Positions 1 through 56,033 of a stretch of DNA of 64,000 nt are shown here, in pieces. Position 1 is the stretch's first letter. Each line of letters begins with the position of its first letter. A program made the position numbers and the translations under genes. This DNA is from Dehalococcoidia bacterium (lineage in GTDB: Bacteria > Chloroflexota > Dehalococcoidia > SHYB01): positions 1,276,479-1,340,478 of the forward strand of contig CBDCOW010000003.1 of the NCBI GenBank assembly GCA_965219875.1. The letters run 5' to 3'. The notes beneath the pieces were generated by a model. That model did no database searches and was not told the origin of the DNA. It saw only the letters and a program-made list of their open reading frames with translations.

Positions 1-306
1 CTGGCCAGGCTGGTGAACAACTACCGCTCCGACGGCGCCAAGAACGCCTCCGGTCTCGCCGATCCGAAGATCGACGCGGCGATAGACGCTATCATGGCGA
101 CGCCCAGCGTGGCGGAACAGCAGCGCATGGCCAAGGATCTGCAGGACTACCTCCTCCAAAACGTGCTCGTGAGCGCCCGCGTCGCGGACTCCTATGCCTA
201 TACCGCCGCGCAGGCCGACGTGCGCACGGGCGACGCCGGACGTTACCGTACGCAGCCTATCGAGACCTACGTGCGCGACCACGAGGAGATCTGGTTCGAG
301 CGTTAA
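1..306 (+). CDS. ABC transporter substrate-binding protein, C-terminal fragment (5' end outside window)
   Basis: The open frame runs from nt 1 with no start. Its C-terminal composition (…NNYRSDGAKNASGLADPKIDAAID…IWFER) resembles family-5 solute-binding proteins. This is a partial gene. Confidence 0.45.
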   Translation: MARLVNNYRSDGAKNASGLADPKIDAAIDAIMATPSVAEQQRMAKDLQDYLLQNVLVSARVADSYAYTAAQADVRTGDAGRYRTQPIETYVRDHEEIWFER

Positions 307-328
307 CCTTTCCGCAGGAGTCATCACC

Positions 329-1141
329 ATGTCCATCCTTGATACGTTCTCACTCGACGGGCGCGTGGCCGTCGTCTCCGGGCCGGGACAGGGTATCGGC
401 CGGGCTATCGCGCTGGCGATGGCCGAGGCCGGGGCCGACGTCGTCCTCGCCGGGATCAACGTGGAAAACCCGTCGGCCAGCGAGGCCGAGCTCGCGGAGG
501 CGGTGGCACAGATCGAGTCGCGGGGCCGTCGCGCACTCCCCGTCACGGTGGACATGCGCGACGGGGAAGGTGTGCAAGGGCTCGTCGCCAAGGCCGTCGA
601 GGCCTTCGGCAAGATCGACGTGATGGTGAACAACGTCGGCGGCACCGGGCTCGAACCCACGCTCGGGCTCAGCGAAGAGACGTGGAACCTCGGCATCGAG
701 ACGAACCTCACCACGACGTTCATGGGCTGCCGGTACGCCGGGGAGCACATGGCGGAACGCGGGTCGGGCGCCATCGTCAACATTTCGTCGATGGACGGGC
801 GGCGCCCCGCGCTGCATCGCGCCGCCTACGGCGCGGGCAAGGCGGGGGTGATCAGCCTCACCGAGACGGCGGCGGAGGAGCTCGGCCCCTATGGCATCAG
901 GGTCAACGCCATCGCGCCGACTTGGGTGCTCACCGACCGCATGGCGCAGCGCTGGAAGGAGGACCCCAGCAAGGCGGAACTTGCCGTCCCCACGATCCCG
1001 TTGGGCCGCGGCGCCCGGCCCGACGAGGTCGCCGCGCTGGCCGTCTTTCTGGCCTCCGACGCCTCCTCCTACATCACGGGACATACCATCGGCATCACCG
1101 GCGGCGCATTGATCACCGGGACGCCGGAGATGATCGTTTAG
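329..1141 (+). CDS. short-chain dehydrogenase/reductase (SDR)
   Basis: ATG at 329 is preceded by GGAG. A TGxxxGIG Rossmann motif (VVSGPGQGIGRAI) and a YxxxK catalytic region (AAYGAGKAG) are present. The longer upstream ORF start at 194 is unlikely. Confidence 0.85.
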   Translation: MSILDTFSLDGRVAVVSGPGQGIGRAIALAMAEAGADVVLAGINVENPSASEAELAEAVAQIESRGRRALPVTVDMRDGEGVQGLVAKAVEAFGKIDVMVNNVGGTGLEPTLGLSEETWNLGIETNLTTTFMGCRYAGEHMAERGSGAIVNISSMDGRRPALHRAAYGAGKAGVISLTETAAEELGPYGIRVNAIAPTWVLTDRMAQRWKEDPSKAELAVPTIPLGRGARPDEVAALAVFLASDASSYITGHTIGITGGALITGTPEMIV

Positions 1142-1158
1142 CGACTAGGGGGAAGCCG

Positions 1159-1977
1159 ATGGGCGTACTCGACCTTTTCAAACTCGAAGGCAAGACGGCG
1201 ATCATCACCGGCGCGGGCCAAGGCATCGGACGCGGCATCGCGACCGGCTTCGCCGAGGCGGGGGCGAACGTCGTCCTCGCCGGCGTCAACGTCAAGACGC
1301 CGGAACGGAGCGAAGCCGAGCTGCGCGAGCTCGCCGACGAGCTATCGGCGCTCGGCGGGCGGGCGCTGCCCGTGGTGACCGAGATGCGCAACGAGGCCGA
1401 CGTGGCCGGGCTTGTCGAGCGCGCCGCAGGCGAGTTCGGCGGCGTCGACGTCATGGTCAACAACGTGGGCGGGGGCACCATTCCCACGCCGCTCCTGAAG
1501 CTATCGCCGGAGCACTGGCGGGAGAACGTTCGAGAGAATGTGAACACCACGTTCCTGGGATGCCGCATCGCCGGAGCGCACATGGCAGAGCGGGGGTCGG
1601 GAACCATTGTCAACCTGGCCGCAATCGCGGGGATCGGCCCCTCCCCCTACTACGCCCACTACGCCGCGGCCAAGGCCGGCGTGATCAGCATCACCAGGAC
1701 CTTCGCGGCCGAACTCGCGCCCGCGGTGCGCGTCAACGCCATCATTCCCTTTCTGATTCGCACCTCCACCGTCAACGCGGCGATGCAGGCGGACCCGGCA
1801 CTGGAAGCCGAGGCCCTAAGCATGACACCGTTGGGGCGTCTGGGGACGCCGCGGGAGGTGGCGTCGCTGGCGCTCTTCCTCGCGAGCGACGCGTCGTCGT
1901 ACGTCACCGGGCAGGCGGTGCGGCTCACCGGCGGCGCGCAGCCGGGCAGCAACCTGTCGGTGACCGATCCGAAGTAA
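1159..1977 (+). CDS. short-chain dehydrogenase/reductase (SDR), paralog of upstream gene
   Basis: ATG at 1159 is preceded by GGGGGAAG. It carries TGAGQGIGRGIA and YAAAKAG motifs and is tandem with the 329-1141 SDR. Confidence 0.85.
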   Translation: MGVLDLFKLEGKTAIITGAGQGIGRGIATGFAEAGANVVLAGVNVKTPERSEAELRELADELSALGGRALPVVTEMRNEADVAGLVERAAGEFGGVDVMVNNVGGGTIPTPLLKLSPEHWRENVRENVNTTFLGCRIAGAHMAERGSGTIVNLAAIAGIGPSPYYAHYAAAKAGVISITRTFAAELAPAVRVNAIIPFLIRTSTVNAAMQADPALEAEALSMTPLGRLGTPREVASLALFLASDASSYVTGQAVRLTGGAQPGSNLSVTDPK

Positions 1978-2001
1978 TCCACTTAACGAGAGATCGACGG
2001 C

Positions 2002-2805
2002 ATGACCAACGGCATTCGCTACGGCTACGCCGACACCCCGGAGGGGCAGGTCCACTACCGGGAGGCGGGCTCGGGGCCCGCGGTGGTGCTGCTCCACGAG
2101 ACGCCCCTGTCGGGCGCGACCTACGAGTGGGCGTTGCCGCTGCTGGCGCCGCACGTCCGGGCCATCGCCCCCGACATCCCCGGCTACGGCTCGTCGCCGC
2201 CGCCGGACGCGCCGCTTTCGATCCCGGAGTACGCGCGCCGCGTCGGCCTGATCCTCGACGCGCTGGGCATCGAACGAGCCGCCATCGCCGGAGGGCATAC
2301 CGGAGCGGCGGTGGCACTGCAGATCGCCACCGACCTGCCCGGACGGGTGCCCAGCGTGATCGCCATGGGCACGCCTCTGTTCACCAAGGAGCAGGGGGAG
2401 GAGATGATCGAGCGGACCGACCTCGGCTACCACGCATCAAAGGACGGAACGCACCTCGAGGCCGCGTGGACCTACATCGCCCGGTTCCTCGGCGATTCCT
2501 CCGACGAATACTACGACGTCGTTACCCGCGCCTTCATGCAGGCCGGCGATCGCTTCGACTGGGCGTTCAAGGCCATCTTCACCTTCGACCTCTACGCCTT
2601 GCTGCCCAAGGTGCCCTGCCCTACCCTGTACCTGATCACCGAGGGGGACTTCCTCCGGGACAAGAACGAAGAGGCGGTGAAGTTGACGCCCAAAGGCGAG
2701 GGCCGGGTGCTCGACCTTCCCCGCGGCGAGCTCTACGCGCGGCACCCGGAGACCTTCCGGGACGAAGCGCTGGCATACTGGCGAAGGACCGGCTACCTCT
2801 CCTAG
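2002..2805 (+). CDS. alpha/beta-fold hydrolase
   Basis: 267 aa with an HG oxyanion region (VVLLHETPLSG) and a nucleophile-elbow-like GGHTGAA motif, typical of alpha/beta hydrolase-fold enzymes. Confidence 0.7.
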   Translation: MTNGIRYGYADTPEGQVHYREAGSGPAVVLLHETPLSGATYEWALPLLAPHVRAIAPDIPGYGSSPPPDAPLSIPEYARRVGLILDALGIERAAIAGGHTGAAVALQIATDLPGRVPSVIAMGTPLFTKEQGEEMIERTDLGYHASKDGTHLEAAWTYIARFLGDSSDEYYDVVTRAFMQAGDRFDWAFKAIFTFDLYALLPKVPCPTLYLITEGDFLRDKNEEAVKLTPKGEGRVLDLPRGELYARHPETFRDEALAYWRRTGYLS

Positions 2806-2832
2806 CACCACCGCGACGGTACGCAAACGGCT

Positions 2833-4023
2833 ATGTCTCCTGAACACGAAGAACGCGTCATCACCGACGAACTGCTCGAACGGGCGCGGGGTCACGTCGG
2901 GGCGACGCTTAAGACGCATGCGCCCTTTCACGAGCACGTCACCGCCGACGCGGCGCGGCACTTCGCCCACGGCGGCGGCGACGACAACCCCCTCTACTGC
3001 GACCCCGCCTACGCGGCGGGAGCGCGCTGGGGAGCCGTCATCGCGCCGCCGATGTTCTTCAGGAGCACCGGTGTTCCCTTAAAGACGGAGTGGACGGAGG
3101 AGCGCGCCCTGTCGCGCGACCCTTTGAGCGGCATCCATTCCTGGTACGCCGGCGACGTAGTCCGCTGGCTCCAGCCGATGAAGGCCGGCGACCAGATCTT
3201 CGAGCGCCGCTTCCTCAAGGACCTCATCGAGAAGTCGAGCTCCTTCGCGGGCCGCACCATCCTCGAAATCTCGCGCCGGGAATACCGGAACCAGCGCGGC
3301 GAGATCGTGGTGGTGTCCGACCAGATCAACATTCGTGGCGGGCGACAGAAGAAGTGGGGCGAGCGCAAGAAGTACGCCGCCTACGAGCGTCAAAGCTACA
3401 CGCCGGAGGAGATCGAGCGCATCGACGAGGCGTACGCGCGCGAATCGCGCCGCGGCGCTGAGCCGCGGTACTGGGAGGACGTCGAGACCGGCGATGAGCT
3501 GCCGGGGCAGGTGAAGGGCCCGATCACCGTGACCGACATCATGAACTGGAACATGGGCTGGGGGCTCGCCATGCAGTTCCACGGCGCGCACCGGCTCGCC
3601 TATCAGTGGCGGAAGGCGCACCCCAGAGCCTACATGACCAACGAGTACGGCGTCCCCGACAGCATCGAGGCCGTGCACTGGGACGACGAACTCGCCCGCC
3701 GCACGGGCAACCCCCACGCCTACGACTACGGCGGCCAGCGGATCGCGTGGCTGGCGCAGATCATCACCGACTGGATGGGCGACGACGGCTGGCTGCTCTC
3801 GCTCGACTGCCAGGTGCGGCGCTTCGTCTACATCGGCGACACCGTGTGGACGAAGGCCACGGTCACCGGCAAGTCGACAAACGACGGTCAGCGCGAGGTC
3901 GAGATCGAGGTGCGGGCCGAAGACCAGCGCGGCGAAGTCACGGCAACGGGGCGCGCCGTCGCGCTGCTGCCGTCGCGGGGCGGTGGAGACGTCGGGCTGC
4001 CGCCCAAGATCGACCTCGGTTAG
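2833..4023 (+). CDS. MaoC-like double-hotdog (R)-specific enoyl-CoA hydratase/dehydratase
   Basis: 396 aa. The N-terminal hotdog domain (…DDNPLYCDPAYAAG…IAPPMFF) plus a C-terminal MaoC domain form a double-hotdog. It is paralogous to 58555-59787. Confidence 0.75.
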   Translation: MSPEHEERVITDELLERARGHVGATLKTHAPFHEHVTADAARHFAHGGGDDNPLYCDPAYAAGARWGAVIAPPMFFRSTGVPLKTEWTEERALSRDPLSGIHSWYAGDVVRWLQPMKAGDQIFERRFLKDLIEKSSSFAGRTILEISRREYRNQRGEIVVVSDQINIRGGRQKKWGERKKYAAYERQSYTPEEIERIDEAYARESRRGAEPRYWEDVETGDELPGQVKGPITVTDIMNWNMGWGLAMQFHGAHRLAYQWRKAHPRAYMTNEYGVPDSIEAVHWDDELARRTGNPHAYDYGGQRIAWLAQIITDWMGDDGWLLSLDCQVRRFVYIGDTVWTKATVTGKSTNDGQREVEIEVRAEDQRGEVTATGRAVALLPSRGGGDVGLPPKIDLG

Positions 4024-5250
4024 CTAGACGATGACCCCGCGCGCTTCGAGATCGCGCAGCTCCCTCGACCCGATTCCGAGCAGCTCGCCGTAGACGTATT
4101 CGTCGTCCTCGCCGGTCTTGGGGGGGCGGCGGTCGATGCGGCCCGGCGTCCGGCTGAACTTCCACGGCGCGCCCATCAGGAGCAGCGGATTGCCCGCCAC
4201 GTCTTCGGTGATTTCGAAGACGCCCCGCGCCTGCAGGTGCGGGTCGGCGAGGAGGTCGGCCGCCGAATAGGACGCGGTGGCGGGGACGCCCGCCGCCTGC
4301 AAGTCGTTCATCACCTCGATCTTGTCGCGCGGCGCTGTCCACGCCGCTATCTCAGCGTCGAGCTCGTGCTGGTGAGCATGGCGCGCCGGCTCCGTAGCGA
4401 AACGAGGATCCGTGGGCCAGTCCGGGCGGTCGAGGGCGGCGCAGAGGGCGCGCCATTCCTCCTCCGTCCCCACCGCGATCGAGAGCCATTGGTCGTCGCC
4501 CTTACAAGGGTAGACGCCGTGAGGCGCCATGTGGGGGTCGCGGTTGCCCATGCGCGGCTGATCGCGTTTGTTGACCACGGCGTCGAGGACGGCTTCGCCG
4601 ATGAAGCTCGTCATCACCTCGCGGCTGGCGGCGTCGATGTGACAGCCTTGCCCCGACTGACGGGCGTTCCACACCGCGGTAAGTAGCGCAAACGACGACG
4701 CCGTCCCCGATATCAGGTCTACGGGCAGCCGCAGTTCGACGGGAGGGCCATCCTCGTAGCCGGTGAGGTAGCCGGGGCCTCCAAGGGCGGAGAAGGCCTG
4801 CGCCAGCCCCTTGCCATGGCGCTCGGGCCCCGTCGCGCCGTGCGCCGACGCTGACAGCAGCACCAGTGCCGGGCTCAACGCGCGGAGATCGTCGTAGCCG
4901 AATCCGAGCCGCTCGAAGACGCCGGCCTGGAAGTTCTCGGCGACGGCGTCGGAGACCGCGATGATTCGCTTGGCGAGCGCCACGCCATCGGGGTGCTTTA
5001 GGTTCAGACGGACGCCCTTCTTGTTCACGTAGAGCTCGTCCAGCGAGAACCAGCGCGTCCCCTTCTCCGCCCGCTCCGAGTCGCCCGAAGGCCGCACCCC
5101 CCGGAAGATCGTGGGATGCGCCGCCGTCTCGGGCTTGATGACCTCCGCGCCCATGAGCGAGCAGAGGAAGGTGCAGTAGGGGCCGACGCCGGCCCAGGTG
5201 AAGTCGACAATACGGACGCCGCTAAGCGGCTGGGGGTCGAAGCCGCTCAC
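4024..5250 (-). CDS. family III CoA-transferase (CaiB/BaiF family)
   Basis: Begins MSGFDPQPLSGVRIVDFTWAGVGPYCTFLCSLMGAEVIKPE, the classic N-terminus of CaiB/BaiF CoA-transferases. 408 aa. Confidence 0.85.
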   Translation of the reverse strand: MSGFDPQPLSGVRIVDFTWAGVGPYCTFLCSLMGAEVIKPETAAHPTIFRGVRPSGDSERAEKGTRWFSLDELYVNKKGVRLNLKHPDGVALAKRIIAVSDAVAENFQAGVFERLGFGYDDLRALSPALVLLSASAHGATGPERHGKGLAQAFSALGGPGYLTGYEDGPPVELRLPVDLISGTASSFALLTAVWNARQSGQGCHIDAASREVMTSFIGEAVLDAVVNKRDQPRMGNRDPHMAPHGVYPCKGDDQWLSIAVGTEEEWRALCAALDRPDWPTDPRFATEPARHAHQHELDAEIAAWTAPRDKIEVMNDLQAAGVPATASYSAADLLADPHLQARGVFEITEDVAGNPLLLMGAPWKFSRTPGRIDRRPPKTGEDDEYVYGELLGIGSRELRDLEARGVIV

Positions 5251-5252
5251 GT

Positions 5253-6476
5253 CTAGACCGCCCCACCGGCGCGCAGCCCCGCGATCTCGCCGCCGCTGTA
5301 CCCCGCGACCTCGGCCAGCACCTCGTCGGTGTGCTCGCCGAGCCTTGGAGCGGACCGTTCGACGGCGTAGGGATGGCCTGGTAGCTGGAAGGGGAGCCCG
5401 GGAATCTTGGTCATGCCCTCGACGGGGGAGGGATGCGGGGGCTCGACGAAGAAGCCGCGCGCCTGCTCATGCTCGGACTCGGGGAGCTCCGAGGGGGCGT
5501 AGAAGATGCCGCAGGGGAAGCCATGCTCCAGCCCCAGGTCGTAGATCTCCCGCTTGGTGCGGTCCTTGGCCCAGGCGAAGAGGTACTCGTTGACCTCAGC
5601 GCCATGCTCAGAGCGCCCCTCTTGGGTGGCAAACTTGGGGTCCCGCGCCCATTCGGGGTCGCCGAGCATCCGCGTGAACGCGTGCCAATGGTTTTCGGCG
5701 ATGTGAAAGAGGACCTCGGCGTGGCCATCCTTGCAGGGGACGCAGCCGCCGTAGGGAATGTCGCGGGTGGCCCGCGTCTCGACGAAGCCGCTCTGGGCCC
5801 ACATGCCGATCGCGATGCGCGCGAGGGTGGCGTGGGCCTCCTGCTTCGACATGTCGATGTGCTGGCCCCGGCCCGACGCGGCACGGCCGAAGACGCCGAT
5901 GATCGCCGCGGAGGCCGCGGTCACGCCGCAGTAGTACTCGCCGACGTAGGCGCCGGTCTTCACCGGCTCGCGGTCGGGGAACATGCGCTGCGCCAGCCCC
6001 GGCGGCATGAGCCAGCCCTCGCCGCCGGCGTGGATCGTGTTCAGGTTGTACGCCTTCCAACCGCTGTGCGGTCCCGTCTGCCCGAACGGGGTGATCGAGA
6101 GCATGATGAGGCCGGGGTTGATCCGCTCCAGGTCGTCGTAGCCCAGCCCCATCGCCTCCAGCGACCCCGGCGGCGTGTCCTCGATGAGCAGGTCGCTCGC
6201 CTTCACAAGGCGGCGGAAGACCTCGCGCCCGGCGTCACCCTCCAGGCTCAGCGTCATGCCTCGCTTGTTCACGTTCACGTAGTGGTGGACGAGGCTCCGC
6301 TCGGCATCGGGACGGTCGCCGGGGAAGGGCCCCCGGCGGCGGGCGATATCGCCCTCGGGCGGCTCGATCTTGATCACGTCGGCGCCGACGTCGGCGAGCA
6401 GCTTGCCGCAGAACGGCCCCGCCACCAGCGAGGTGTAGTCGAGGACTCGGAGTCCGTTCAGGAAGGGAATGCTCAT
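5253..6476 (-). CDS. family III CoA-transferase (CaiB/BaiF family)
   Basis: Begins MSIPFLNGLRVLDYTSLVAGPFCGKLLADVGADVIKIEPPEGD. 407 aa. It lies 3 nt upstream of its paralog at 4024-5250. Confidence 0.85.
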   Translation of the reverse strand: MSIPFLNGLRVLDYTSLVAGPFCGKLLADVGADVIKIEPPEGDIARRRGPFPGDRPDAERSLVHHYVNVNKRGMTLSLEGDAGREVFRRLVKASDLLIEDTPPGSLEAMGLGYDDLERINPGLIMLSITPFGQTGPHSGWKAYNLNTIHAGGEGWLMPPGLAQRMFPDREPVKTGAYVGEYYCGVTAASAAIIGVFGRAASGRGQHIDMSKQEAHATLARIAIGMWAQSGFVETRATRDIPYGGCVPCKDGHAEVLFHIAENHWHAFTRMLGDPEWARDPKFATQEGRSEHGAEVNEYLFAWAKDRTKREIYDLGLEHGFPCGIFYAPSELPESEHEQARGFFVEPPHPSPVEGMTKIPGLPFQLPGHPYAVERSAPRLGEHTDEVLAEVAGYSGGEIAGLRAGGAV

Positions 6477-7038
6477 CGTTGGGGTTCGGAAGCGCCGCGG
6501 AGCGATGATAGCACGCGGCCTCTTACCCCGCGGGTGGGTTATCCCGCCGCCTGACCGAAGGTCCGGCGCTGTCGTCTGAAGGAAGGGGGCGCGGAGGGCG
6601 CACCGGAGTCAAGGGGGTAACCATCTTAAGAGTCACGGGGCTGGGCAGCTACGGATGGGGAGCATGGCCGCGCCACGAGGCGCCCATGCGGGCTCGACTA
6701 AAGGTTACCGCGCCGAGCTAACTTCCCATACGTCACGTTGCAGCTCCGGCATGTCCGGCGATCTCATCTCGCGTTCGTTTGGGGCGCCCGCTTCAAGGCC
6801 GGGCCTCGGCCTCGCTTGAAGCTCCTCGCGCTTGGGAGGAGCGCAGGAGCTCCCGGAGGGAGGGCGCCCCTCCGCGCCACGTGGCGCCGCTCTTCCCTCT
6901 GAGCCCGCGCCGGTGGCTGAGTACGCCTAAGACATGCAAGGACATGGTAGGGCGCGGGGGCGGGGATGGGGAAGGGGCGGATGTCGCGGGGGGCTTTGGT
7001 TGGTCGAGGGTGGCGGCGTCGGTTAGGCTAGTCAAGGA

Positions 7039-7392
7039 TCACTCCCTGATGCGCACCCTCGAGTCTTCGACAATCCAAAGTTGCCCTTTCGGGGATGACC
7101 TCGCCAGCGTCTCGATCAGCTGAGCGCCGACATCCAAGAGAGCGTTCCGTGTTTGGCTAGCAAGCCGGAACACGACAATGCCGGGATAGTCCCCCGGTGG
7201 GTACGCTCTGATATCGGCAAAGTCCAAGTCTTGCGTTACCAGCGCACGTTCCTCTGCAATGCATACCCGTGCAACCTCTGCATCCGTTGCGCCGCCGAGG
7301 CCCTCATCGAGGACTGTTGCAGTATCGTGTGCCGATTCCGTGAACAAACCCTTTAACTGGAGCGGCAGGTTCTCGTCAAGCTTGACCCGCAT
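7039..7392 (-). CDS. DUF5615 family protein (PIN/Mut7-C-like putative toxin)
   Basis: 117 aa beginning MRVKLDENLP…, typical of DUF5615. It sits immediately downstream of a DUF433 gene in a lower-GC stretch. Confidence 0.6.
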   Translation of the reverse strand: MRVKLDENLPLQLKGLFTESAHDTATVLDEGLGGATDAEVARVCIAEERALVTQDLDFADIRAYPPGDYPGIVVFRLASQTRNALLDVGAQLIETLARSSPKGQLWIVEDSRVRIRE

Positions 7393-7400
7393 CGGTGTTC

Positions 7401-7640
<240 letters not shown>

Positions 7641-7751
7641 TCACCCTTCCCCATTTAGATAGGGACTTCCTTCAGATCGCCGGGCTGTATCCCGCTAATG
7701 GCTGTGCGGATGTCTTCTATTCGCAGCTGGACATAGGGCCAAGCAGAATCT

Positions 7752-7979
7752 TCACGGTTGCGCGGGGGCTCTGAGCGCCTTCGCCGCATGTTCGAGAACG
7801 GCTCTAACCTTCCATTCCTCCACTCCCTGGAACCAGTCCAGGAACTGTTCTATCGTGGCGCCGCTCTCAAGGTTCTCGAACAGGGCGGATACCGGCACCC
7901 TGGTCCCGGTGAACACCCAGGCTCCGCTGAGCCTGCCTGGTACGCTTTCTACTGCCGGGCAGGTCTCCCAATTCGTCAT
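7752..7979 (-). CDS. DUF433 family protein (second, orphan copy)
   Basis: 75 aa with the GTR motif (FTGTRVPV). It is paralogous to 7401-7634. Confidence 0.55.
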   Translation of the reverse strand: MTNWETCPAVESVPGRLSGAWVFTGTRVPVSALFENLESGATIEQFLDWFQGVEEWKVRAVLEHAAKALRAPAQP

Positions 7980-8189
7980 GCCGACACCTCGCTCTTGCCT
8001 TCCTAAGTTTGCGGTTTAGCCACCACATCCATGGAGGCTTCCACCATCTTCTGGGGGAACGCCTACTCGATACTCCATACGCCGCACCAAGAGTTTGTGA
8101 ACGCCGTCCGGCGTACGGCAGCCTGATTATATCCCCTGCTCCCCTTCGTCGCCCCAGCGGCCCGCGGCCTCGCGGGTACGGGCGCGGGT

Positions 8190-8218
8190 TTGACCTGGCG
8201 CGGGGGCATTGCTAGGCT
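8190..8218 (+). promoter_or_regulatory. sigma70-like promoter candidate (TTGACC-17bp-TAGGCT) upstream of M24 peptidase gene
   Basis: TTGACC at 8190-8195 and TAGGCT at 8213-8218 are separated by a 17-bp spacer. The element lies about 60 nt upstream of the ATG at 8281. Confidence 0.35.
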
Positions 8219-13140: not shown

Positions 13141-14838
13141 TTAGGCGTCGGACGCTTCCTCAGGGAGCGGATACACCAACGTCGTCGGGTTGTTGGAGTA
13201 CCAACCGAACCAGAACGCGTTGTTGGTGGGAATGCGGGCCAGGGCCGCCGAACCGTCCCCGGGCACCAGCGCGTCCTCCGTCACCCGCCAGGTGACGCCG
13301 TCGGAGTCGAGAATGGTGCGCGCGCCGAGCTCGCCGCCAAGCTCCTCTTGGAACGTGACGCGAACCCCTTCGCGGTCGGTCAGGTAGGCGCGCGCCCCGC
13401 CCTGCAGCGGGTCCGTTACGACGACGAGGCCGTTCTCGCCGATGGAATCGTTGAACACCGGCGCCTCCATGAGCGCTCGGAGGAGATAGGCCTTGGGGAC
13501 GCCTCCCAGCAGGACGCCGAGGACCTGCGCCTTGGTCGCCAGCAACTCGCTTTGCAGCCAGACGGGGAACATGGTGTCCGAGCTATTGAAGTAGTCGAAG
13601 TAGATCGCGAAGGGGTCGTCTTCCGGCACGTAGAAGGCGGCATCGTAGACACCGGTGTCTACGTGCAGCACGGTCGTGTCGGGGTGACTCGCCTTCCACT
13701 CGCCCCACGTCGTCAGGGTAATGGGGAGTTTCTTGAGCTTGATGCCGCTGTTGGCGAGCGGTCCGACGACGGGCTCGCCGAGGAACTGGCGCCACAGCGT
13801 CTCCGTCGCCCGGTCGTACATGAGCTTATTGCTGCGGTAGAGCATGCCGGAGGTGCCGAACTCGATGCGCTGGTCCGATATCTCGGGGACGTTGGTGGAA
13901 TACACGATTCCCGCGCCGCAGAGCGTTCAGTAGGCAAGGGCGAAGGGTTCGCCCCCCAGAGTGTCGTTGACCATTTCGTGGGCGTTGACGATGCGCAAGG
14001 GGTAGGCGCGGTGCTCGCCGTTAATGGAGACGCCGAAGACGCGGTCGCCGGGCGACAGATAATCGGCGTTGCCGGCCGAAATCGTCGGAGGATAGCGGAG
14101 GTCGGGGATGCCGTCCTTGCGGACGCCGCCCCAGGCGATCTCCTCGATGCGGATGCGCGCGCCCTCGCCGGTGCCCAAGAGGGCGGCCATGTCGGGGTCG
14201 ATGCGGGCGAGGAGCTCCTTCTTGAACTCGACGTATTCGGTCGGCGGGGTGACCTCGTCATGGCTTCCCAGCCAGATGACCCATTCCCGCCACTGCCGGT
14301 GGGTGTACGACTCACCCGAAAGGGACTGCAGCGCCTCGATGATGGTCTCGATGCCGTTTGGATCGAAGTAGGTGGGAGTGAAGAACATTTCCAGCAGCAC
14401 CGGGATGTAGCTCTGGTCGCCGCTGGCGCCCATCGTGGCGAAGGCGTCGATCTGGAGCAGGGCGTTGCTCCGAAGGCTGTCCCACATCAGTGCGTTGCGG
14501 TCGATCTCGATCTGGACTTCGGGAGGGTTGGTGGGACCGGGCGTGGACGTGGGCCGCGGAGTCGCCGTGGGCTCACTGGCGTCCGGGAGCGGCGACGCCG
14601 AGGGCGCTGCCGTGGGGGAAGCGCCGGTCGGCACGGCCGTGACGGTCGGCGCAGGGACTGCCGTCGAGCCGGCACCCTCCTCGACGGTCGGCGCGGGGGT
14701 CTCGGACGCGGCGGTGGGGCTAGGCACCGATGGCGGCGACGTGGGCTCCTCGCCGCCTGAGCAAGCGGCGGCGGCGAGCACCGCGGCCCCCGCCGCCATC
14801 ACGATCTTGAGTCGCCATGTGCCTGCGTTTGCGTTCAT
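13141..14838 (-). CDS. DUF3179-domain lipoprotein, putative selenoprotein (in-frame TGA = Sec at 13927-13929; UxxC motif)
   Basis: Track ORFs 13927-14838 and 13141-13905 are in the same frame (14838-13905 = 933 = 3x311), separated only by TGA plus 7 codons. The joined sequence reads …RAYPLRIVNAHEMVNDTLGGEPFALAY-U-TLCGAGIVYSTN…; the TGA sits where DUF3179 proteins carry the first Cys of a conserved YC-P/T-LCG motif. Lipobox signal peptide, Pro/Thr linker. 565 codons. Confidence 0.55.
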
Positions 14839-14914: not shown

Positions 14915-16672
14915 CTAGGCGTTCGACGCTTCCTCAGGGAGCGGATACACCAGCGTCAGCGGGTAGTTGGAGTACCAGCCGAACCAGAACGCGTTGTTGG
15001 TGGGAATGCGGACCAGGGGGGCCGAGCCGTCGTCGGGTACGAGCGCGTCGTCGGTCACCCGCCAGGTGACGCCGTTGGAGTCGACGAGGGTACGCGCGCC
15101 GAGTGGGCCGCCGAGATCCTCCTCGAAGGTGACGCGGACGCCGTCGCGGTCGGCCAGGTAGGCGCGCGCGCCGCCATGCAACGGCTCCGTTACGACGACG
15201 AGGCCGTTCTTGCCGATGGAGTCGTTGAACACCGGCACATCCGTGAGCGCGCGGAGGAGATAGGCCTTGGGGACGCCGCCCAGCAGGACCCCGAGCACCT
15301 GCGCCTTGGTCGCCAGTGCCTCGCTTTGCAGCCAGACAGGGAACATCGTACGCGAGCTATTGAAGTAGGTGTAGTAGATCGCGGATGGGTCGTCTTCCGG
15401 CACGTAGAAGATGGACTGGTAGACGCCCGTGATCTGGCTCAGCACGGTCGTGTCGGGGTGGCTCGCCTTCCACTCACCCCACGTCGTCAGCGTAATCGGT
15501 AGCTTCTTGAGTTTGATTCCGCTGCTGGCGAGCGGCCCAACGACGGGCTCACCGAGGAACTGGCGCCAGAGCGTCTCCGTCGCCCGGTCGTACATGAGCT
15601 TATTGCTGCGGTAGAGCATGCCGGAGGTGCCGAACTCGATGGGCTGGTCCGATATCTCGGGCACGTTGGTGGAATACACGATTCCCGCGCCGCAGAGCGT
15701 TCAGTAGGCGAGGGCGAAGGGTTCGCCCCCCAGGGTGTCGTTGACCATTTCGTGGGCGTTGACGATGCGCAGCGGGTAGGCGCGGTGCTCACCGTTGATG
15801 GAGACGCCGAAGACGCGGTCAGTGGGCATGAGGTAATCGGCACCGGGGTCGTCGGCCGGAATCGTGGGCGGGTACCGGAGGTCGGGGATCCCGTCCTTGC
15901 GGACGCCGCCCCAGACGATCTCCTCGACGCGGATGCGGTCTCCTTCCCCGATCCCCAGGAGGGCGGCCATGTCGGGGTCGATGCGGCCGAAGAGCTGCTT
16001 CTTGAACTGGACGAACTCGGTCGGCGGGGTGATCTCGTCATGCATTCCCAGCCAGATGATCCAATCGAGCCAATCGCGGCGGGTGTACTCCTCGCCGGTA
16101 AGGGACCGCAGCGCCTCGACGATGGCCTCTACGCCATTCGGATCGAAATAGGTGGGCGACCAGTACCACTCGAGCAGCACCGGGATGTAGCTCCGGTCGC
16201 CGCTGGCGCCCATCGTCGCGAAGGCGGAGACCTGGAGCAAAGGTTCGTTCTCAAGGCTTTCCCACATCAGAGCGTTGCGGCCGGCCTCGATCTGGGCCGG
16301 CGGGAGCGTGGGACGGGGCGTGGCGATGGGCGCTGGGGCTGCGGTCGGCTCAACGACGGGTGGAAGCGGCGTTGGTGAGGGGCGCGGGCCCGCCGGAGAG
16401 GCGGCGGGCGTCAGGGTTGGCGCGGCGGTGGCGGCCGGCGAGGTGGGAACGGCAGTTGCCGCCGGTCCGGAAGACGGAGCGGTCGGCGCAGGAACATCGG
16501 TCGGGGAGCCACCCGCGTCCGGGGACGTTGTGGCGGTCGCTGACGGGGCGGTGGGGCTGGGCTCCGGCGGCGAGGGGCCCACGTCGCCGCCGGAGCAGGC
16601 GGCGACCGCGAGTACGGCGGCTCCTGCCGCCGTCACGATCTTGAGCCGCCATGTGCCTGCGCTTGCTTTCAT
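14915..16672 (-). CDS. DUF3179-domain lipoprotein paralog, putative selenoprotein (in-frame TGA = Sec at 15701-15703)
   Basis: Same architecture as 13141-14838. 16672-15679 = 993 = 3x331, so the two track ORFs are in one frame. The nucleotide context around the TGA is identical (…GGEPFALAY-TGA-TLCGAGIVYSTNVPEISDQ…). Lipobox is VAAC. 585 codons. Confidence 0.55.
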
Positions 16673-16810: not shown

Positions 16811-17644
16811 GTGCCCGACGTCATCTACGAGAAAAACCCCGAGGGTCACTACGCCGTCTTCACTCTGAACCGCCCCGAGCGCCTCAACGCCATCGGGGGC
16901 GGCGTGAAGGAAGCACTAGCGGCGGCCCGCGCCGACTTCGAGGCGGATAGCGAGATGCGCTGCGGCATCGTCACCGGCGCGGGGCGCGCCTTCTGCGCCG
17001 GGGCCGACCTGAAGGAGATGGCGGAGAACAACACGCGGCGGCGCAAGATTCAGGACGACTTCGAGGCGGGCGTCATTTCTCAGGCGGAACGCGACCAGGC
17101 GCTGGGGGTCACCTTTCCCAGCGATCTGAGCTTCTTCGGCTTTTCGCGGAGCTCGAAGCCGTTCGTCGCCGCCGTCAACGGGCTGGCCGTGGGCGGCGGC
17201 ATGGAGCTTAGTCTCGATTGCGACATCCGCATCGCCTCGACGGAGGCCTACTTCGGCCTCTACGAGGTGAAGCGCGGGATCATCGCCGGCTACGCCGTGC
17301 AGCACCTGCCCCGCCTGATTCCGCTGGGCGAGGCGATGTACATGCTCCTCACCGGCGACCGGATCGCCGTCGAGGACGCGCTCCGCAACCGCCTGGTGCA
17401 TGAGATCGTCGAGCCGGACCGCCTCATGCCCCGCGCCGTCGAGATCGCCGAGATGATCGCCGCCAACGCCCCGCTCTCCATTCAAGGCACGAAGGCGATG
17501 GCCTCCACCTGGCGCCTCATGGGAATGGAAGAGACGAAGCGGGTCGCCGACTGGGTCATGCGCTACCTCGGCGAGAGCGACGACTCCAAGGAGGGCCCGC
17601 TGGCCTTTGCTGAAAAGCGCGAGCCCCGGTGGACGGGGCGCTGA
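16811..17644 (+). CDS. enoyl-CoA hydratase/isomerase (crotonase fold)
   Basis: GTG start with a GGAGG RBS. FTLNRPERLNA…FCAGADLKEM is the crotonase signature. Confidence 0.85.
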   Translation: MPDVIYEKNPEGHYAVFTLNRPERLNAIGGGVKEALAAARADFEADSEMRCGIVTGAGRAFCAGADLKEMAENNTRRRKIQDDFEAGVISQAERDQALGVTFPSDLSFFGFSRSSKPFVAAVNGLAVGGGMELSLDCDIRIASTEAYFGLYEVKRGIIAGYAVQHLPRLIPLGEAMYMLLTGDRIAVEDALRNRLVHEIVEPDRLMPRAVEIAEMIAANAPLSIQGTKAMASTWRLMGMEETKRVADWVMRYLGESDDSKEGPLAFAEKREPRWTGR

Positions 17645-17683
17645 CCCCGCGCCATAGGAAAGCCATTCTCTGAAAGGACCGCC

Positions 17684-18517
17684 ATGCCCGATCTCGTCTA
17701 CGAGAAGTTCCCCAAGCAGCACTACGCCACCTTCACCATGGACCGGCCCGAACGGCTGAACGCCGCGGGCCGCCGGCTCAAGATCGAGTGGGAGGAGGCG
17801 CTGCAGGACTTCGAGGCCGACACTGAGATGCGGTGCGGCATCGTCACCGGCGCTGGCCGCGCCTTCTGCGCCGGCGCCGACTTGAAGGAGATGGCCGAGG
17901 ACAACGCCGCGCGCCAAGCCGTCGAGGCCGAGTATGCCGCCGGCGAGATCACCCTCGAACGCCGCGACGAACGCCTGCGGGAGCTTGCTCCGCCGCAGGT
18001 GGACAACTTCCGCATCTCATTCCACCCCAAGCCGTTCATCGCCGCCGTGAACGGCCTCTGCATCGGCGGGGGCATGGAGCGCACCATGGCCTGCGACATC
18101 CGCATCGCCTCGACGGAGGCTTACTTCGGCCTGTTCGAGGCCAAGCGCGGCATCCTCGCCGGCTACGGCATCATGCATCTGGCGCGGCTGATGCCCTACG
18201 GCGACGCCATGTACCTACTCCTCACCACCGACCGCATGAGCGCGGAGGAGGCCCTGAAGTCAGGTTTCGTCCGCGAGGTCGTCGAGCCGGAGCGCCTCAT
18301 GCCCCGCGCCGTCGAGATCGCCGAGATGATCGCCGCCAACGCCCCGCTTTCCATTCAAGGCACCAAGGCGATGGCTGCCACTTGGCGGCACATGGGCATG
18401 GAAGAGGTGCGCCGCGCCAACGATTGGGTCGCCCGCTACGTCCTCGAATCGGACGACGCGAAAGAGGGGCCGCGCGCCTTCTCCGAAAAGCGCGAGCCGA
18501 ACTGGACGGGCCGCTAG
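17684..18517 (+). CDS. enoyl-CoA hydratase/isomerase (crotonase fold), tandem paralog
   Basis: FTMDRPERLNA…FCAGADLKEM. Much of the sequence matches 16811-17644. Confidence 0.85.
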   Translation: MPDLVYEKFPKQHYATFTMDRPERLNAAGRRLKIEWEEALQDFEADTEMRCGIVTGAGRAFCAGADLKEMAEDNAARQAVEAEYAAGEITLERRDERLRELAPPQVDNFRISFHPKPFIAAVNGLCIGGGMERTMACDIRIASTEAYFGLFEAKRGILAGYGIMHLARLMPYGDAMYLLLTTDRMSAEEALKSGFVREVVEPERLMPRAVEIAEMIAANAPLSIQGTKAMAATWRHMGMEEVRRANDWVARYVLESDDAKEGPRAFSEKREPNWTGR

Positions 18518-35499: not shown

Positions 35500-36723
35500 T
35501 TGGCGTCGGCGATTCTGCGCGGCATTCGCGTGCTGGAGCTTGGGGACTACGTCTCCGCGGCGTTCGGGGCGCGGCTGCTCGGCGACTACGGCGCGGAAGT
35601 CATCAAGATCGAGGCGCCGGGCGCCGGCGACACGGCGCGCCGGCACGGGCCGTTCCCGCAGTCGGGCCCCGATCCCGACGCCAGCGGCCTGTTCATGTTC
35701 CTCAACCGGGGCAAGCTCAGCGCCACGGTCGACCTGACCAAGGCCACGGGCCGCGACCTCACCCGCGACCTCGTCCGCACCTGCGACGTCGTCATCCACA
35801 ACTACCTGCCCCAAGAGCTCGACGCCCTCGGCCTCGACTACGGGGCACTCCGCACGATCAACCCCGGCGTGGTGCTGACCTCGGTCACCGTCTTCGGTCA
35901 CGAGGGGCCGTACAGCGGCCACAAGGCGTACGCCCTCAACGGGAGCTGCGCCGGCGGAGCCGCCCATCGCATCGGCGACCCCGACCGTTACCCCCTGGCG
36001 ATGCCGTACAGCCGCGCCGACCTGTGGGGAGGCCTCAACTCGTCGCCGGCCGTCATGCTCGCGCTGCTGGCCCGCCGCCGCGACGGCCCCGGCCAGCACG
36101 TCGACATCGCGACCGCCGACGCCATGAACGACTTCGGCAACGGCGGCGACATGATCGCCTACGCCGCCGACGGGTACGAGACGCGCCGCCACGGGATGCA
36201 CACCCCGATCAGCTACCCCTACAGCGTCCTGCCCTGCAAGGACGGTCACGTCTCGATGATCCTGGGCAACGAGCACCACTGGCAGCGCCTGCTCGACATC
36301 ATGGGGCGGCCCGAGTGGACGAAAGACCCGCGATTCCAGAACCGGAGCGAGATCGGCGCGCTGCACGCCAAGGAAGTCGACGAGCACCTCAAGGAGTTCA
36401 TCGCGGGGTTCACCAAGGACGAGTTCTGGAAGATGTGCCGCGATAACAGCCTGCCGTGGCACGCCGCGCAGACCATTGAGGACGTGCTGGCGTGGGACCT
36501 GCTGGAGGGCCGCGGCTTCTGGCGCGAGGCCGAGGACGGCGCGGGACGCCGATGGCGCCTGCCGGGGCCGCTCTTCGCCGCGGCGGGCCTTGGCGACGAC
36601 GGCCCCGACGCTCCCGCCGTGCGCGCCCCCCGGCTCGGCGAGCACAACGGCTACGTGCTCGGTGGACTGCTGGGGCTGAGCGGGGACCAAGTCGCCCACC
36701 TGCGGCGGACGGGAGTCGTCTAG
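35500..36723 (+). CDS. family III CoA-transferase (CaiB/BaiF family)
   Basis: TTG start at 35500 with an AAAGAGAGG RBS. LRGIRVLELGDYVSAAFGARLLGDYGAEVIKIE. Confidence 0.75.
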   Translation: MASAILRGIRVLELGDYVSAAFGARLLGDYGAEVIKIEAPGAGDTARRHGPFPQSGPDPDASGLFMFLNRGKLSATVDLTKATGRDLTRDLVRTCDVVIHNYLPQELDALGLDYGALRTINPGVVLTSVTVFGHEGPYSGHKAYALNGSCAGGAAHRIGDPDRYPLAMPYSRADLWGGLNSSPAVMLALLARRRDGPGQHVDIATADAMNDFGNGGDMIAYAADGYETRRHGMHTPISYPYSVLPCKDGHVSMILGNEHHWQRLLDIMGRPEWTKDPRFQNRSEIGALHAKEVDEHLKEFIAGFTKDEFWKMCRDNSLPWHAAQTIEDVLAWDLLEGRGFWREAEDGAGRRWRLPGPLFAAAGLGDDGPDAPAVRAPRLGEHNGYVLGGLLGLSGDQVAHLRRTGVV

Positions 36724-37940
36724 TGGCCGGCGCACGCTATCCCCTGGACGGCTACCGCGTGGTCGAGATCTCGCAGATTTGGGCCGCGCCGCAGCTCGCC
36801 TCGTCGCTGGGCGACATGGGCGCCGAGGTCATCCGCGTCGAGTCCCTGGTGAGCACCGACGTGGCTCGCATCGGCGGCGGCGGCAAGAGTGAGTACCGCC
36901 TCCTGCTCGACTACCAGCGCCACGCCCGCAGCCGCGCGGCCTACGTCACCCTCAACATTCGCGACCCGGAGGGCATGGCTTACTTGCACGACCTGCTCCG
37001 CACCGCCGACATCTTCGTCTGCAATCTCTCGCCGCGCGTCCTCAAGAAGCTCGCGCTGACCTACGACGACGTGCGCCGCCTGCGCCCCGACATCGTCATG
37101 GTCACCATCTCGGCGGCGGGGCAGGACGGCCCGTGGAGCGACCTCGTCGCCTTCGGCCCCGCGATGAACGCCGTCGTGGGCAGCGACCTACTCGTCGGCT
37201 ACCCGGGCGACGACGTCTTCATGTCGTCGTATTGGGACCCCGACCCGGCGATGGGTATGGCGGCGTCGTACGCCGTCTTCCTCGCGCTCTACCGCCGCGA
37301 AGAGACCGGCGAGGGCCGGCACATGGACATGAGCTTCGCCGAGTTCCTCACCGGAATGCTCGGCGAGCCCATCCTTGAAATGCAGATGACGGGGCGAAAC
37401 CCAACCCCGCAAGGGAACCGGCACCCCTGGCAGTCGCCGCACGGGATCTACCCCACGTCGGAGGAAGACCGTTGGGTCGGCGTCGCCGTGGCGAAGGAGG
37501 AAGAGTGGGCCGCGCTCTGCGGCGCGATAGGCCGCCCCGAGCTCGCCGCCGATCCGCGTTTCGCCGACATGGCCAAGCGCGTCGAGCGCCGCGGCGAAGT
37601 CGACGAGATCGTCGCGTCGTGGACCCGCGGGCGCACCAACTACGCGGCGGCGGAGGTCCTGCAGCGGGCCGGCGTCGCCGCCACGCCCGCCTTCACCATC
37701 GCCGAGATCTACCACGACGAACACCACCGCTTGCGCCGCACCTCGATAAAGATGGACGAGACGGGCTTCGACCGCGATCTGATCACCTACGGCCTCTCGT
37801 GGCGTCTGAGCCGCACCCCCGGAGCCTTCCGCCGGCTCGGCCAGCCCGTGGGCGGCGACAACCAGACCTTCTACCAAGGCTTCTTCGGCCTCACCGCCGA
37901 GCGCGTCGCCGACCTGGAGTCGCGCAAGATCTTCTACTAG
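36723..37940 (+). CDS. family III CoA-transferase (CaiB/BaiF family)
   Basis: The GTG start overlaps the upstream TAG stop (GTCTAGTGG), indicating translational coupling. LDGYRVVEISQIWAAPQLASSLGDMGAEVIRVE. Confidence 0.75.
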   Translation: MAGARYPLDGYRVVEISQIWAAPQLASSLGDMGAEVIRVESLVSTDVARIGGGGKSEYRLLLDYQRHARSRAAYVTLNIRDPEGMAYLHDLLRTADIFVCNLSPRVLKKLALTYDDVRRLRPDIVMVTISAAGQDGPWSDLVAFGPAMNAVVGSDLLVGYPGDDVFMSSYWDPDPAMGMAASYAVFLALYRREETGEGRHMDMSFAEFLTGMLGEPILEMQMTGRNPTPQGNRHPWQSPHGIYPTSEEDRWVGVAVAKEEEWAALCGAIGRPELAADPRFADMAKRVERRGEVDEIVASWTRGRTNYAAAEVLQRAGVAATPAFTIAEIYHDEHHRLRRTSIKMDETGFDRDLITYGLSWRLSRTPGAFRRLGQPVGGDNQTFYQGFFGLTAERVADLESRKIFY

Positions 37941-50034: not shown

Positions 50035-50076
50035 GGCGGGTTTCTTCCTCTCGGCTATGAGGCAGGCCGGGCCGGA

Positions 50077-50493: not shown

Positions 50494-50599
50494 GGGGGGA
50501 CCTCGCTGGGAGCGCCGCCCTTCTGCGTGCGGCGCCGGGGAGAGTCTAGCCGCAAGGAGAGCGGCGCCGCAACGCGGGAGGGGTCTGCGGCGCATGGCG

Positions 50600-52875: not shown

Positions 52876-52971
52876 GTGGCGGTGGGCGCTCCCGCGTCGT
52901 GCCCTATAATGCCGGGGCGCGGACGCCGCCGCGTCCAAGCGGATACGACCACGACGCAATCGCGGGGACCC

Positions 52972-53988: not shown

Positions 53989-54080
53989 GCGGCAAGGGAC
54001 GGGAGCCCTCGCGAAAACGGGGCCTGCCCGTATAATTGGCCCGATCCCCGAGCCGCGAACGGGCCGCGAGGAGCGAATGC

Positions 54081-55202: not shown

Positions 55203-55213
55203 CGGCGGGGCCG

Positions 55214-56017: not shown

Positions 56018-56033
56018 CGGGCGGAGCCGGCGC

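Follow-up and report, generated by a model that had tools for sequence, protein, structure and literature searches.

Why should 64 kb of a Dehalococcoidia genome encode six family III (CaiB/BaiF) CoA-transferases, every one of them beside another? The question is raised by a stretch of 64,000 nucleotides (contig CBDCOW010000003.1 of assembly GCA_965219875.1, positions 1,276,479 to 1,340,478), hereafter called the window, and above all by its first gene cluster, in which genes for two short-chain dehydrogenases/reductases (SDR1 and SDR2), an alpha/beta-hydrolase-fold protein and a double-hotdog hydratase (HD1) face a pair of transferase genes (Table 1). The answer that we favour, with moderate confidence, is that the window encodes three two-subunit transferases of the type of BbsEF, each made up of an A-like and a B-like subunit, that two of the three are wired to an (R)-hydratase built as a fusion of HadA-like and HadB-like halves, and that the first cluster serves the route outlined below. 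The best reading of cluster 1 itself is a transporter-linked acyl-CoA module that would combine CoA transfer, R-hydration and oxidation.

The window holds exactly six CoA_transf_3 genes, here numbered CT1 to CT6, and each belongs to an adjacent pair, as the initial annotation had stated. All six products align with the family profile from position 1 to position 353–366 of 366 (E = 1.6e-71 to 5e-93). In all-versus-all BLAST comparisons they form two groups, B-like {CT1, CT4, CT5} and A-like {CT2, CT3, CT6}, with one member of each group in every pair and an identity between partners of only 23–34%. For pairs 2 and 3, the similarity within the groups (A–A and B–B) is greater than that between partners; for pair 1 the margin is smaller, CT3–CT6 (134 bits) scoring below CT1–CT2 (152 bits). 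The best solved match for five of the six is a chain of BbsEF (PDB code 9fn0), the succinyl-CoA:(R)-benzylsuccinate CoA-transferase. Chain B is the best match of CT1 (177 bits, compared with 76 bits for chain A), CT4 (137 bits) and CT5 (189 bits, next match 123 bits), the last being the nearest of the six to this chain, and chain A is the best match of CT2 (187 bits) and CT6 (189 bits, next match 119 bits). Adjacent subunits with one counterpart for each Bbs chain, by reciprocal best matches, are found in pairs 1 and 3, and in pair 2 through CT4 only. PDB chains of racemases, CaiB and mesaconyl-CoA isomerase score far below the Bbs chains. A racemase role, which had been offered as one possibility for the system, finds no favour in these comparisons: the alpha-methylacyl-CoA racemase chains (Mcr/AMACR) reach 62–75 bits with CT1 and CT2, and are absent at E ≤ 1e-15 for CT3–CT6, as against 137–189 bits for Bbs or Frc-type chains with the window transferases.

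A phylogeny of the six proteins had been proposed as a check, and it was built with both Bbs chains as a neighbour-joining tree, to which single genes of actinobacteria and the partner pairs of related loci were added. Of 200 bootstrap replicates, 187 recover the B clade and 135 the A clade. CT5 groups with chain B of 9fn0, CT1 lies within the B clade, and the position of a subunit in one clade corresponds to that of its partner in the other. When 12 pairs are compared, distances among A subunits correlate with the distances among their B partners (r = 0.746), a value that none of 10,000 permutations of the partner labels reaches. The A tree is mirrored in the B tree, and it follows that the pairs duplicated and diverged as units.

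The gene junctions and a set of natural fusions point in the same direction. CT2 and CT1 are separated by 2 nt (TAG-AC-GTG), and the genes overlap in the other two pairs, CT3/CT4 in TAGTG and CT5/CT6 in TGATG, an arrangement indicative of translational coupling in all three pairs. Nine Dehalococcoidia genomes (loci L018–L026) encode a natural A–B fusion of 800 residues, convergent to an HD1 ortholog of 61–64% identity. Its N-terminal half is A-like and its C-terminal half B-like, so that this Rosetta-stone fusion has the usual A-then-B order. In L018, the hydratase ortholog is surrounded by RecQ, an enolase-superfamily fusion, GH3, FMO and a cyclase, a context that shows no coherent pathway past the transferase and hydratase core. 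In cluster 1, cluster 3 and L018–L026, a double-hotdog gene lies beside an A/B transferase or converges on it. Because the marine SAR202 genome GCA_002816675.1 also carries this layout, in the order A(Gly)-B(Asp)-HD-HD-A(Ser)-B(Asp), the A/B pairing and its link to the hydratase reach into the SAR202 clade. With the Bbs chain matches, the mirrored trees, the junctions and the fusions together, the heteromeric CoA-transfer system suggested in the initial annotation is computationally well supported. The trees, coupling and fusions give indirect support to a physical assembly of the paired subunits, which in the BbsEF type would give an α2β2 heteromer.

The two subunits also differ at the position of the family III nucleophile, which we take to be Asp169 in the numbering of Frc/YfdW. 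The column was located by alignment with YfdW and its GDSNTG motif, and is occupied by Asp in CT1, CT3, CT4 and CT5, by Glu in CT2 and by Ser in CT6, which has no acidic residue near the position. Asp is present in all 59 domains that score as B-like, a set that includes weakly classified actinobacterial single genes and about 30 clear members from Dehalococcoidia loci and the window, and it is likewise present in Bbs chain B. Among 118 aligned CT2 homologs the column is mixed (Glu in 50, Asp in 34, Ser in 25 and other residues in 9), and the A halves of the fusions have Tyr, His or Phe. The canonical mechanism is thus not available to the A partners of pair 3 and of the fusions, in which the position is non-acidic.

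In DddD, a fused double transferase, the catalytic Asp lies in the C-terminal domain. The fusions of L018–L026 resemble the DddD- and Rv1866-type enzymes in layout, with two domains and an intact Asp in the C-terminal one only. The window genes differ in being separate, not fused, and no genes related to dimethylsulfoniopropionate are present. DddD-like matches among SAR202 transferases have been noted by Landry et al. (PMC5395668, of which excerpts are drawn on here).

The simplest alternative is that adjacent transferases are ordinary tandem paralogs, each forming a separate homodimer with its own substrate, and that their adjacency stems from rampant local duplication. The window does contain other tandem duplicates, namely two genes for enoyl-CoA hydratases (ECH; 16811–18517) and two DUF3179 genes; most of the characterised family III enzymes (Frc, YfdW, CaiB and Mcr) are homodimeric; and in pair 2 both members keep Asp, and CT3 has a presumably homomeric CaiB/BaiF protein as its best match. 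The partners, however, are too dissimilar to be recent duplicates and always belong to different ancient clades, and the mirrored trees, the fusions and the translational coupling all speak against independent enzymes. Furthermore, homodimers of those A-like proteins in which the nucleophile is replaced by Ser, Gly, Tyr, His or Phe would be inactive. We therefore consider separate homodimers unlikely, and continue with paired A and B subunits as the units of the system.

Cluster 1 places one such pair in a defined setting. Its six genes, at 329–6476, have the positions and domains given in the initial annotation, and the four plus-strand genes are tightly spaced as described there, with measured gaps of 17, 24 and 27 nt in place of 18–28 nt. 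The convergent ends at 4023/4024 are also as described, the stop codons of HD1 and CT1 abutting in TAG/CTA at 4021–4026; the distance between the two transferase genes had been given as 3 nt and is the 2 nt noted above. The cluster is preceded by the 3′ end of a gene for an ABC-transporter solute-binding protein, which in its full form in the relatives L001 and L006 is an SBP_bac_5 protein and whose best NCBIfam matches, NikA, GsiB and DppA, are far under cut-off. In close relatives, two genes for ABC permeases and one for a further binding protein come before this gene, and cluster 1 continues beyond the left edge of the window. The order of binding protein, two permeases, (a further binding protein), two SDRs, hydrolase-fold protein and hydratase, facing the B and A genes, is syntenic in seven Dehalococcoidia loci (L011–L017), among them a diverged second copy within one genome with a hydratase identity of 78%. 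From this synteny, the arrangement exceeds chance and is real and non-random. The second copy (L016; OZ253453.1, 582861–604051) is a diverged whole module in the genome that also carries L011. Its hydrolase-fold and transferase reading frames look split or fragmented, two to three more A/B pairs lie within 10 kb, and the locus may be a hotspot at which modules are duplicated and decay.

In the route that we infer for cluster 1, an organic acid would be imported by the family-5 ABC transporter encoded just upstream, and a CT2/CT1 heteromer would convert it to the CoA thioester without ATP, with succinyl-CoA or a pathway product as the donor. The B subunit would supply the Asp nucleophile, and the A subunit would mainly complete the interlocked dimer and recognise the substrate. 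HD1 would then hydrate an enoyl-CoA to the (3R)-hydroxyacyl-CoA, which an SDR1/SDR2 hetero-oligomer would oxidise to the 3-oxoacyl-CoA, with SDR1 as the active subunit and SDR2, which lacks the catalytic Ser, in a supporting role as in BbsCD. The oxo product could pass to the hydrolase-fold protein, perhaps for thioester or C–C cleavage or for decarboxylation, or to thiolases encoded elsewhere.

For the hydration step, HD1 is predicted to be a fused double-hotdog (R)-type enoyl-CoA hydratase or dehydratase, with two hotdog domains and a candidate Asp/His pair. The N-terminal half is HadA-like (FAS1_DH_region, with the motif GDDNPLY) and the C-terminal half HadB-like, with VHWDDE where HadB has PIHWDDE. 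The AlphaFold model (pLDDT 90.4, pTM 0.91) has the double-hotdog topology, and Foldseek relates it to double-hotdog hydratases at E = 1e-17 to 1e-11. The closest solved folds are the mycobacterial double-hotdog dehydratases 5i7n and 4v12, followed by mesaconyl-CoA hydratases (4e3e, 8hgn), Rv0216, itaconyl-CoA hydratase (8huc, 8khg) and MFE-2 hydratase 2, all at an identity of ≤17% and a TM-score of about 0.5–0.6. Among 63 sequences, His282-Trp283 is invariant and Asp276 is conserved in at least 90%; the candidate Asp lies 6 residues before the His, not the canonical 5 of DxNPxH. HD1 shares with HadAB/HadBC and with MFE-2 hydratase 2 the double-hotdog fold, a HadA-like N-terminal half (DxNPxY) and a HadB-like C-terminal half. 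It differs from the fused_HadA_HadB family in length (396 compared with 329 residues) and in score (47 bits compared with a cut-off of 350), and from HadAB in its context, which is catabolic CoA chemistry and not mycolate or FAS-II synthesis.

Homologs of HD1 at 42–46% identity occur in Streptomyces, Nocardia, Amycolatopsis, Mycobacterium and others (L027–L090). Among these 64 actinobacterial loci, acyl-CoA dehydrogenases (ACADs) are encoded in 55, acyl-CoA ligases in 46, ECH in 43 and P450 in 36, and thiolases are found as well. Since such clusters are of the beta-oxidation type, the HD1 family can be taken to work on acyl-CoAs. The Dehalococcoidia hydratase loci lack the P450, ACAD, ligase and thiolase partners of the actinobacterial clusters. 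A conserved actinobacterial gene order was also observed: ligase, SDR, ACAD, family III transferase, P450, ACAD, ligase, hydratase, ECH, transferase and thiolases.

The two SDRs of cluster 1 are 53% identical. The classical motifs (TGxxxGxG and Asn-Ser-Tyr-Lys) are complete in SDR1, which in the alignment has its Gly-rich motif and Ser/Tyr/Lys intact, and in SDR3 of cluster 3. In SDR2 the catalytic Ser is missing, being replaced by Ala in all seven orthologs and by Asp in the diverged L016 paralog. From these residues, SDR1 is the probable active subunit, and SDR2 probably an impaired or supporting one. A precedent is BbsCD, a heterotetramer of two active and two inactive supporting subunits (PMC13418739). 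In common with BbsCD are the adjacent SDR paralogs, one of them without a catalytic-tetrad residue, beside a Bbs-like transferase. The differences are that SDR1 and SDR2 are not orthologs of that pair, no Bbs-specific family being among their best 25 NCBIfam matches, and that SDR2 keeps the Tyr, the Lys and the NAD-binding motif.

The hydrolase-fold protein belongs to the dehalogenase/epoxide-hydrolase branch, has the elbow sequence G-G-H-T-G with His99, and contains no GxSxG motif. In the alignment with haloalkane dehalogenase and epoxide hydrolase, the elbow His falls on their nucleophile Asp, and the positions of the acid, Asp216, and of His248 are kept, as assigned by eye. Though a member of the fold family, the protein has neither an Asp nor a Ser elbow, and canonical covalent catalysis would not be expected. 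His is found at the elbow column in 78 of 120 homologs, SAR202 proteins included, and this conservation would imply non-canonical chemistry for a sizeable subfamily of the alpha/beta-hydrolase fold.

How far does the resemblance to the Bbs system extend? As in BbsEF and its analogues for arylalkyl-succinates, two diverged family III paralogs are adjacent, and Asp is carried by chain B and the B-like proteins, and is missing at the aligned column from chain A and many A-like proteins. A hydratase gene and paired SDR genes stand with those of the transferases, which is also the case in the bbs operon. The Bbs pathway proceeds in the order CoA-transferase, dehydrogenase, hydratase, SDR and thiolase (PMC10818641), and the route of cluster 1 would correspond to steps 1, 3 and 4 with a hydratase of a different fold, HD1 being a double hotdog of the MaoC/HadAB type and BbsH a crotonase. 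On the other hand, the identity to BbsEF is only about 30% and no NCBIfam equivalog cut-off is reached, and the host is a member of Dehalococcoidia and not a toluene-degrading denitrifier or iron reducer. In the Pfam annotation of the window, no benzylsuccinate synthase or glycyl-radical enzyme, BbsG-type ACAD, BbsH-type partner or BbsAB thiolase is found, and the BbsB model scores 126–150 bits in the window against a cut-off of 750. Because these partner genes were not found and BbsB stays under its cut-off, the architecture is Bbs-like but the proteins are not functional Bbs orthologs. Two thiolase/DUF35 gene pairs were considered as Bbs-like partners and rejected. The first, at 61884–63978, belongs to a set of mevalonate-type thiolase, HMG-CoA synthase and DUF35 genes. 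The second, at 48877–50595, reaches 126 bits with the BbsB model (cut-off 750) and is separated from cluster 3 by ComB-like, CrcB and CofD genes.

Known two-subunit family III enzymes use asymmetric dicarboxylates (benzylsuccinate, phthalate and malate), which makes a substituted or unsaturated di- or polycarboxylic acid the most economical guess for the substrate. By analogy with the BbsEF, phthalate, itaconate and mesaconate systems, an acid of this kind, or else a bulky one, is our first guess, with complex organic matter as its source. Other candidates, named in the initial annotation, are bile-acid/steroid-like side chains or ring-cleavage products.

A related proposal is that the transferase and double-hotdog core serves a C4/C5-dicarboxylate route (itaconate, mesaconate, malate or citramalate), like Ict/Ich, Mct/Mch or the SmtAB step in the 3-hydroxypropionate bi-cycle of Chloroflexus. 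Such pathways are known to combine a family III transferase and a MaoC hydratase, and in Ict/Ich and Mct/Mch an unsaturated dicarboxylate is activated without ATP by a family III enzyme and then hydrated by a double-hotdog protein. The organism belongs to Chloroflexota, mesaconyl- and itaconyl-CoA hydratases rank high among the structural neighbours of HD1, and the NCBIfam model for succinyl-CoA:mesaconate CoA-transferase does give matches in the window. These matches, however, reach 114–175 bits against a cut-off of 700, and HD1 shares only 11–12% identity with the hydratases at a TM-score of about 0.5–0.6, so that similarity is far below the family cut-offs. The Ict and Mct transferases are single-gene homodimers, no citramalyl- or malyl-CoA lyase (CitE/HpcH) gene was found in the window, and the SDRs could not act on the tertiary alcohol of citramalyl-CoA. 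We give this route little credence. Equally improbable is a unit for steroid or bile-acid-type side chains like MFE-2 or ChsH-Hsd4A, with the family III proteins as racemases or as CoA-transferases for cholate-like acids: the combination of an (R)-hydratase and an SDR is the MFE-2/Hsd4 design, the actinobacterial clusters with HD1 homologs (P450, ACAD, ligase and thiolase) resemble those for sterol side-chain degradation, and sterol- or hopanoid-like substrates for SAR202 are proposed in the excerpts from Landry et al. (PMC5395668), but the racemase chains score less than the Bbs chains by the wide gap given above (62–75 against 137–189 bits), the Dehalococcoidia clusters are without P450, ACAD, ligase, Kst/Hsa-type or Ltp2-type genes, and the upstream Opp/Dpp-type ABC transporter is atypical for sterol uptake.

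Several observations weigh against BbsEF-type pairs and the route proposed for cluster 1. CT3 is the least Bbs-like of the six transferases. Its best PDB match is 4ed9, a CaiB/BaiF protein of the homomeric type, with 174 bits compared with 95–106 bits for the Bbs chains, and only the tree and BLAST place it in the A clade, which has a bootstrap support of only 68%. At the nucleophile column, the residue of Bbs chain A depends on the aligner (Tyr by MAFFT, Glu by phmmer) in a loop where the alignment is ambiguous, and CT2 (Glu) and CT3 (Asp) keep a carboxylate, so that the A subunits of pairs 1 and 2 may be catalytically active. Similarly, SDR2 may retain activity, given the residues that it keeps. 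The curated equivalogs that were tried (formyl-CoA transferase, succinate-glutarate, succinyl-CoA:mesaconate, CaiB and mesaconyl-CoA isomerase) score 114–219 bits against cut-offs of 413–750 and were rejected; as no transferase reaches any such cut-off, assignment of the substrate by homology is impossible. Cluster 1 is without an ACAD or thiolase gene, and a full turn of beta-oxidation is consequently not encoded locally. The place of the hydrolase-fold protein is the weakest part of the proposed route, since homologs at 42–52% identity sit in unrelated contexts. Finally, a promoter and terminator scan of positions 1–8200 gave nothing beyond the shuffled expectation, and hence no signal that would delimit transcription units.

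The initial annotation had the gene set of cluster 1 recurring twice in the window. This is true of the transferase pair, and the hydratase is present at two of the three sites, but the full set is found only once. Site 2 is a bare transferase pair amid housekeeping genes (metallophosphoesterase, MoaD/MoaE and thymidylate kinase). It is followed at a distance of 20 nt by an open reading frame for a polytopic membrane protein with no Pfam or NCBIfam match, which may be a transporter or a partner of transferase pair 2. Site 3 (54036–59787) has a single SDR and contains neither a hydrolase-fold gene nor a second SDR gene. Its hydratase, HD2, is 39% identical to HD1, and its luciferase-like (LLM) oxidoreductase matches both FMN- and F420-type LLM families of NCBIfam, all under cut-off. 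The adjacent CofD gene hints that this enzyme is F420-dependent rather than an FMN Baeyer-Villiger enzyme.

Table 1. Features of the window discussed in the text; positions are counted from the first nucleotide of the window.
Feature	Position	Strand	Remarks
Family-5 (Opp/Dpp/Nik-type) ABC solute-binding-protein gene, 3′ end	13-306	+	Cut by window edge; last transporter gene before SDR1
SDR1	329-1141	+	Pfam adh_short_C2, 4e-60; start codon and Shine-Dalgarno sequence
SDR2	1159-1977	+	SDR1 paralog
Alpha/beta-hydrolase-fold protein	2002-2805	+	Pfam Abhydrolase_1/6
HD1, 396-residue double hotdog	2833-4023	+	FAS1_DH_region/MaoC N-terminal half, HadB-like C-terminal half
CT1, B-like family III CoA-transferase	4024-5250	-	Pfam CoA_transf_3, 5e-93
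CT2, A-like family III CoA-transferase	5253-6476	-	Pfam CoA_transf_3, 3e-88; transcribed before CT1
DUF5615 gene and two DUF433 genes	7039-7392, 7401-7634, 7752-7979	-	Correspondence with gene calls in L001 and L006
DUF3179 tandem genes	13141-14838, 14915-16672	-	Each broken by an in-frame TGA
Enoyl-CoA hydratase (crotonase) tandem paralogs	16811-17644, 17684-18517	+	277 residues each; also in related genome L006
CT3, A-like, pair 2	35500-36723	+	A clade in tree and BLAST; Asp kept
CT4, B-like, pair 2	36723-37940	+	Asp; best PDB match 9fn0_B
Polytopic membrane open reading frame, 479 residues	37961-39400	+	Follows CT4
2-phosphosulfolactate-phosphatase-like gene	about 51170-51834	+	Near CofD
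CofD (F420 biosynthesis)	52876-53988	+	Immediately upstream of LLM
Luciferase-like (LLM) flavin- or F420-dependent oxidoreductase	54036-55202	+	Cluster 3 begins here; Pfam Bac_luciferase, 8e-53; start possibly 54081
SDR3, single SDR	55214-56017	+	Ser/Tyr/Lys set intact
CT5, B-like, pair 3	56034-57314	+	Asp; best PDB match 9fn0_B
CT6, A-like, pair 3	57314-58558	+	Ser at nucleophile position; best PDB match 9fn0_A
HD2, second double-hotdog hydratase	58555-59787	-	Convergent with CT6, 4-nt overlap
Archaeal-type acetoacetyl-CoA thiolase	61884-63221	-	PRK06157, 585 bits
HMG-CoA synthase C-terminus and DUF35 Zn-ribbon/OB domain, open reading frame	63130-63978	-	Gene runs toward window end

The host is an uncultured soil or water Dehalococcoidia bacterium (Chloroflexota). 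The closest genomes are complete or near-complete metagenome-assembled genomes of Dehalococcoidia bacteria with chromosomes of ~3–3.6 Mb, and in four of them HD1 is 91–93% identical. The named homologs of CT2 come from Chloroflexota, Dehalococcoidia or the SAR202 cluster. The G+C content of the window is 64–71%, and real reading frames are clearly distinguished by third-position GC. The remaining genes, which include FtsK, RNase J, UDG, a fused acetyl-CoA carboxylase carboxyltransferase, CofD and tRNA-Phe, fit a chromosomal region, and an Rfam scan of the window returned tRNA-Phe only. The thiolase and DUF35 genes at the right end form a fused thiolase/HMGCS/DUF35-type mevalonate-pathway module in this member of Dehalococcoidia.

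Two other features of the window were noted. Each DUF3179 gene is interrupted by an in-frame TGA (13927–13929 and 15701–15703) at the first position of a U-x-x-C (CxxC-like) motif, in the context LAY-TGA-TLCGAG, and the split is identical in a 96%-related genome; these TGAs are candidate selenocysteine codons. A small hairpin lies ~17 nt downstream of the TGA, with a folding energy no better than that of shuffled sequences. The DUF5615/DUF433 trio is toxin-antitoxin-like and sits in a lower-GC stretch upstream of CT2.

With six transferases, at least five SDRs, one LLM enzyme and several amidohydrolases in 64 kb, the window matches the expansions of CaiB/BaiF, SDR and luciferase-like paralogs that the excerpts from PMC5395668 describe as a hallmark of SAR202 Chloroflexota. 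The system shares its lineage and gene families with these expansions, and a SAR202 genome has the A-B-HD-HD-A-B order given above. The difference lies in the treatment of the transferases, which in the excerpts are a pool of individual paralogs, and the passages drawn on here say nothing of paired genes, of A and B subfamilies, of a partner that has lost its nucleophile or of a link to double-hotdog hydratases. The system is best described as a variant of the BbsEF type, with two-subunit family III CoA-transferases and accessory enzymes, in a lineage already known for expanding such families. Its main use is that the SAR202-type transferase expansion can be recast, in a testable form, as A/B pairs that co-evolve and go with double-hotdog hydratases.

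Soils and the deep ocean harbour SAR202-like Dehalococcoidia in abundance, and the many CaiB/BaiF transferases of these bacteria are key to the hypothesis that they degrade recalcitrant dissolved organic matter. A wider generalisation, which we advance tentatively and hold to be possible rather than probable, is that the SAR202-type CaiB/BaiF expansion consists of obligate A/B heteromers and fusions, in which B would carry the sole reliable nucleophile and A would often be a non-catalytic subunit for specificity or scaffolding. Tied to HadAB-like hydratases, these would form a modular, ATP-free entry for many different carboxyl-rich compounds. A separate and secondary novelty would be the alpha/beta-hydrolase-fold subfamily with its conserved elbow His. 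The pairing changes the way in which transferases are counted and points to joint, not single, expression of the subunits. It also defines minimal units, A, B and hydratase, with or without an SDR pair. If the reading holds, the principle of an active and a supporting subunit known from BbsEF and BbsCD would extend past anaerobic hydrocarbon degradation, roughly half of the counted "transferases" would not be independent enzymes, and the substrate range of these bacteria would be set by co-evolving A/B pairs.

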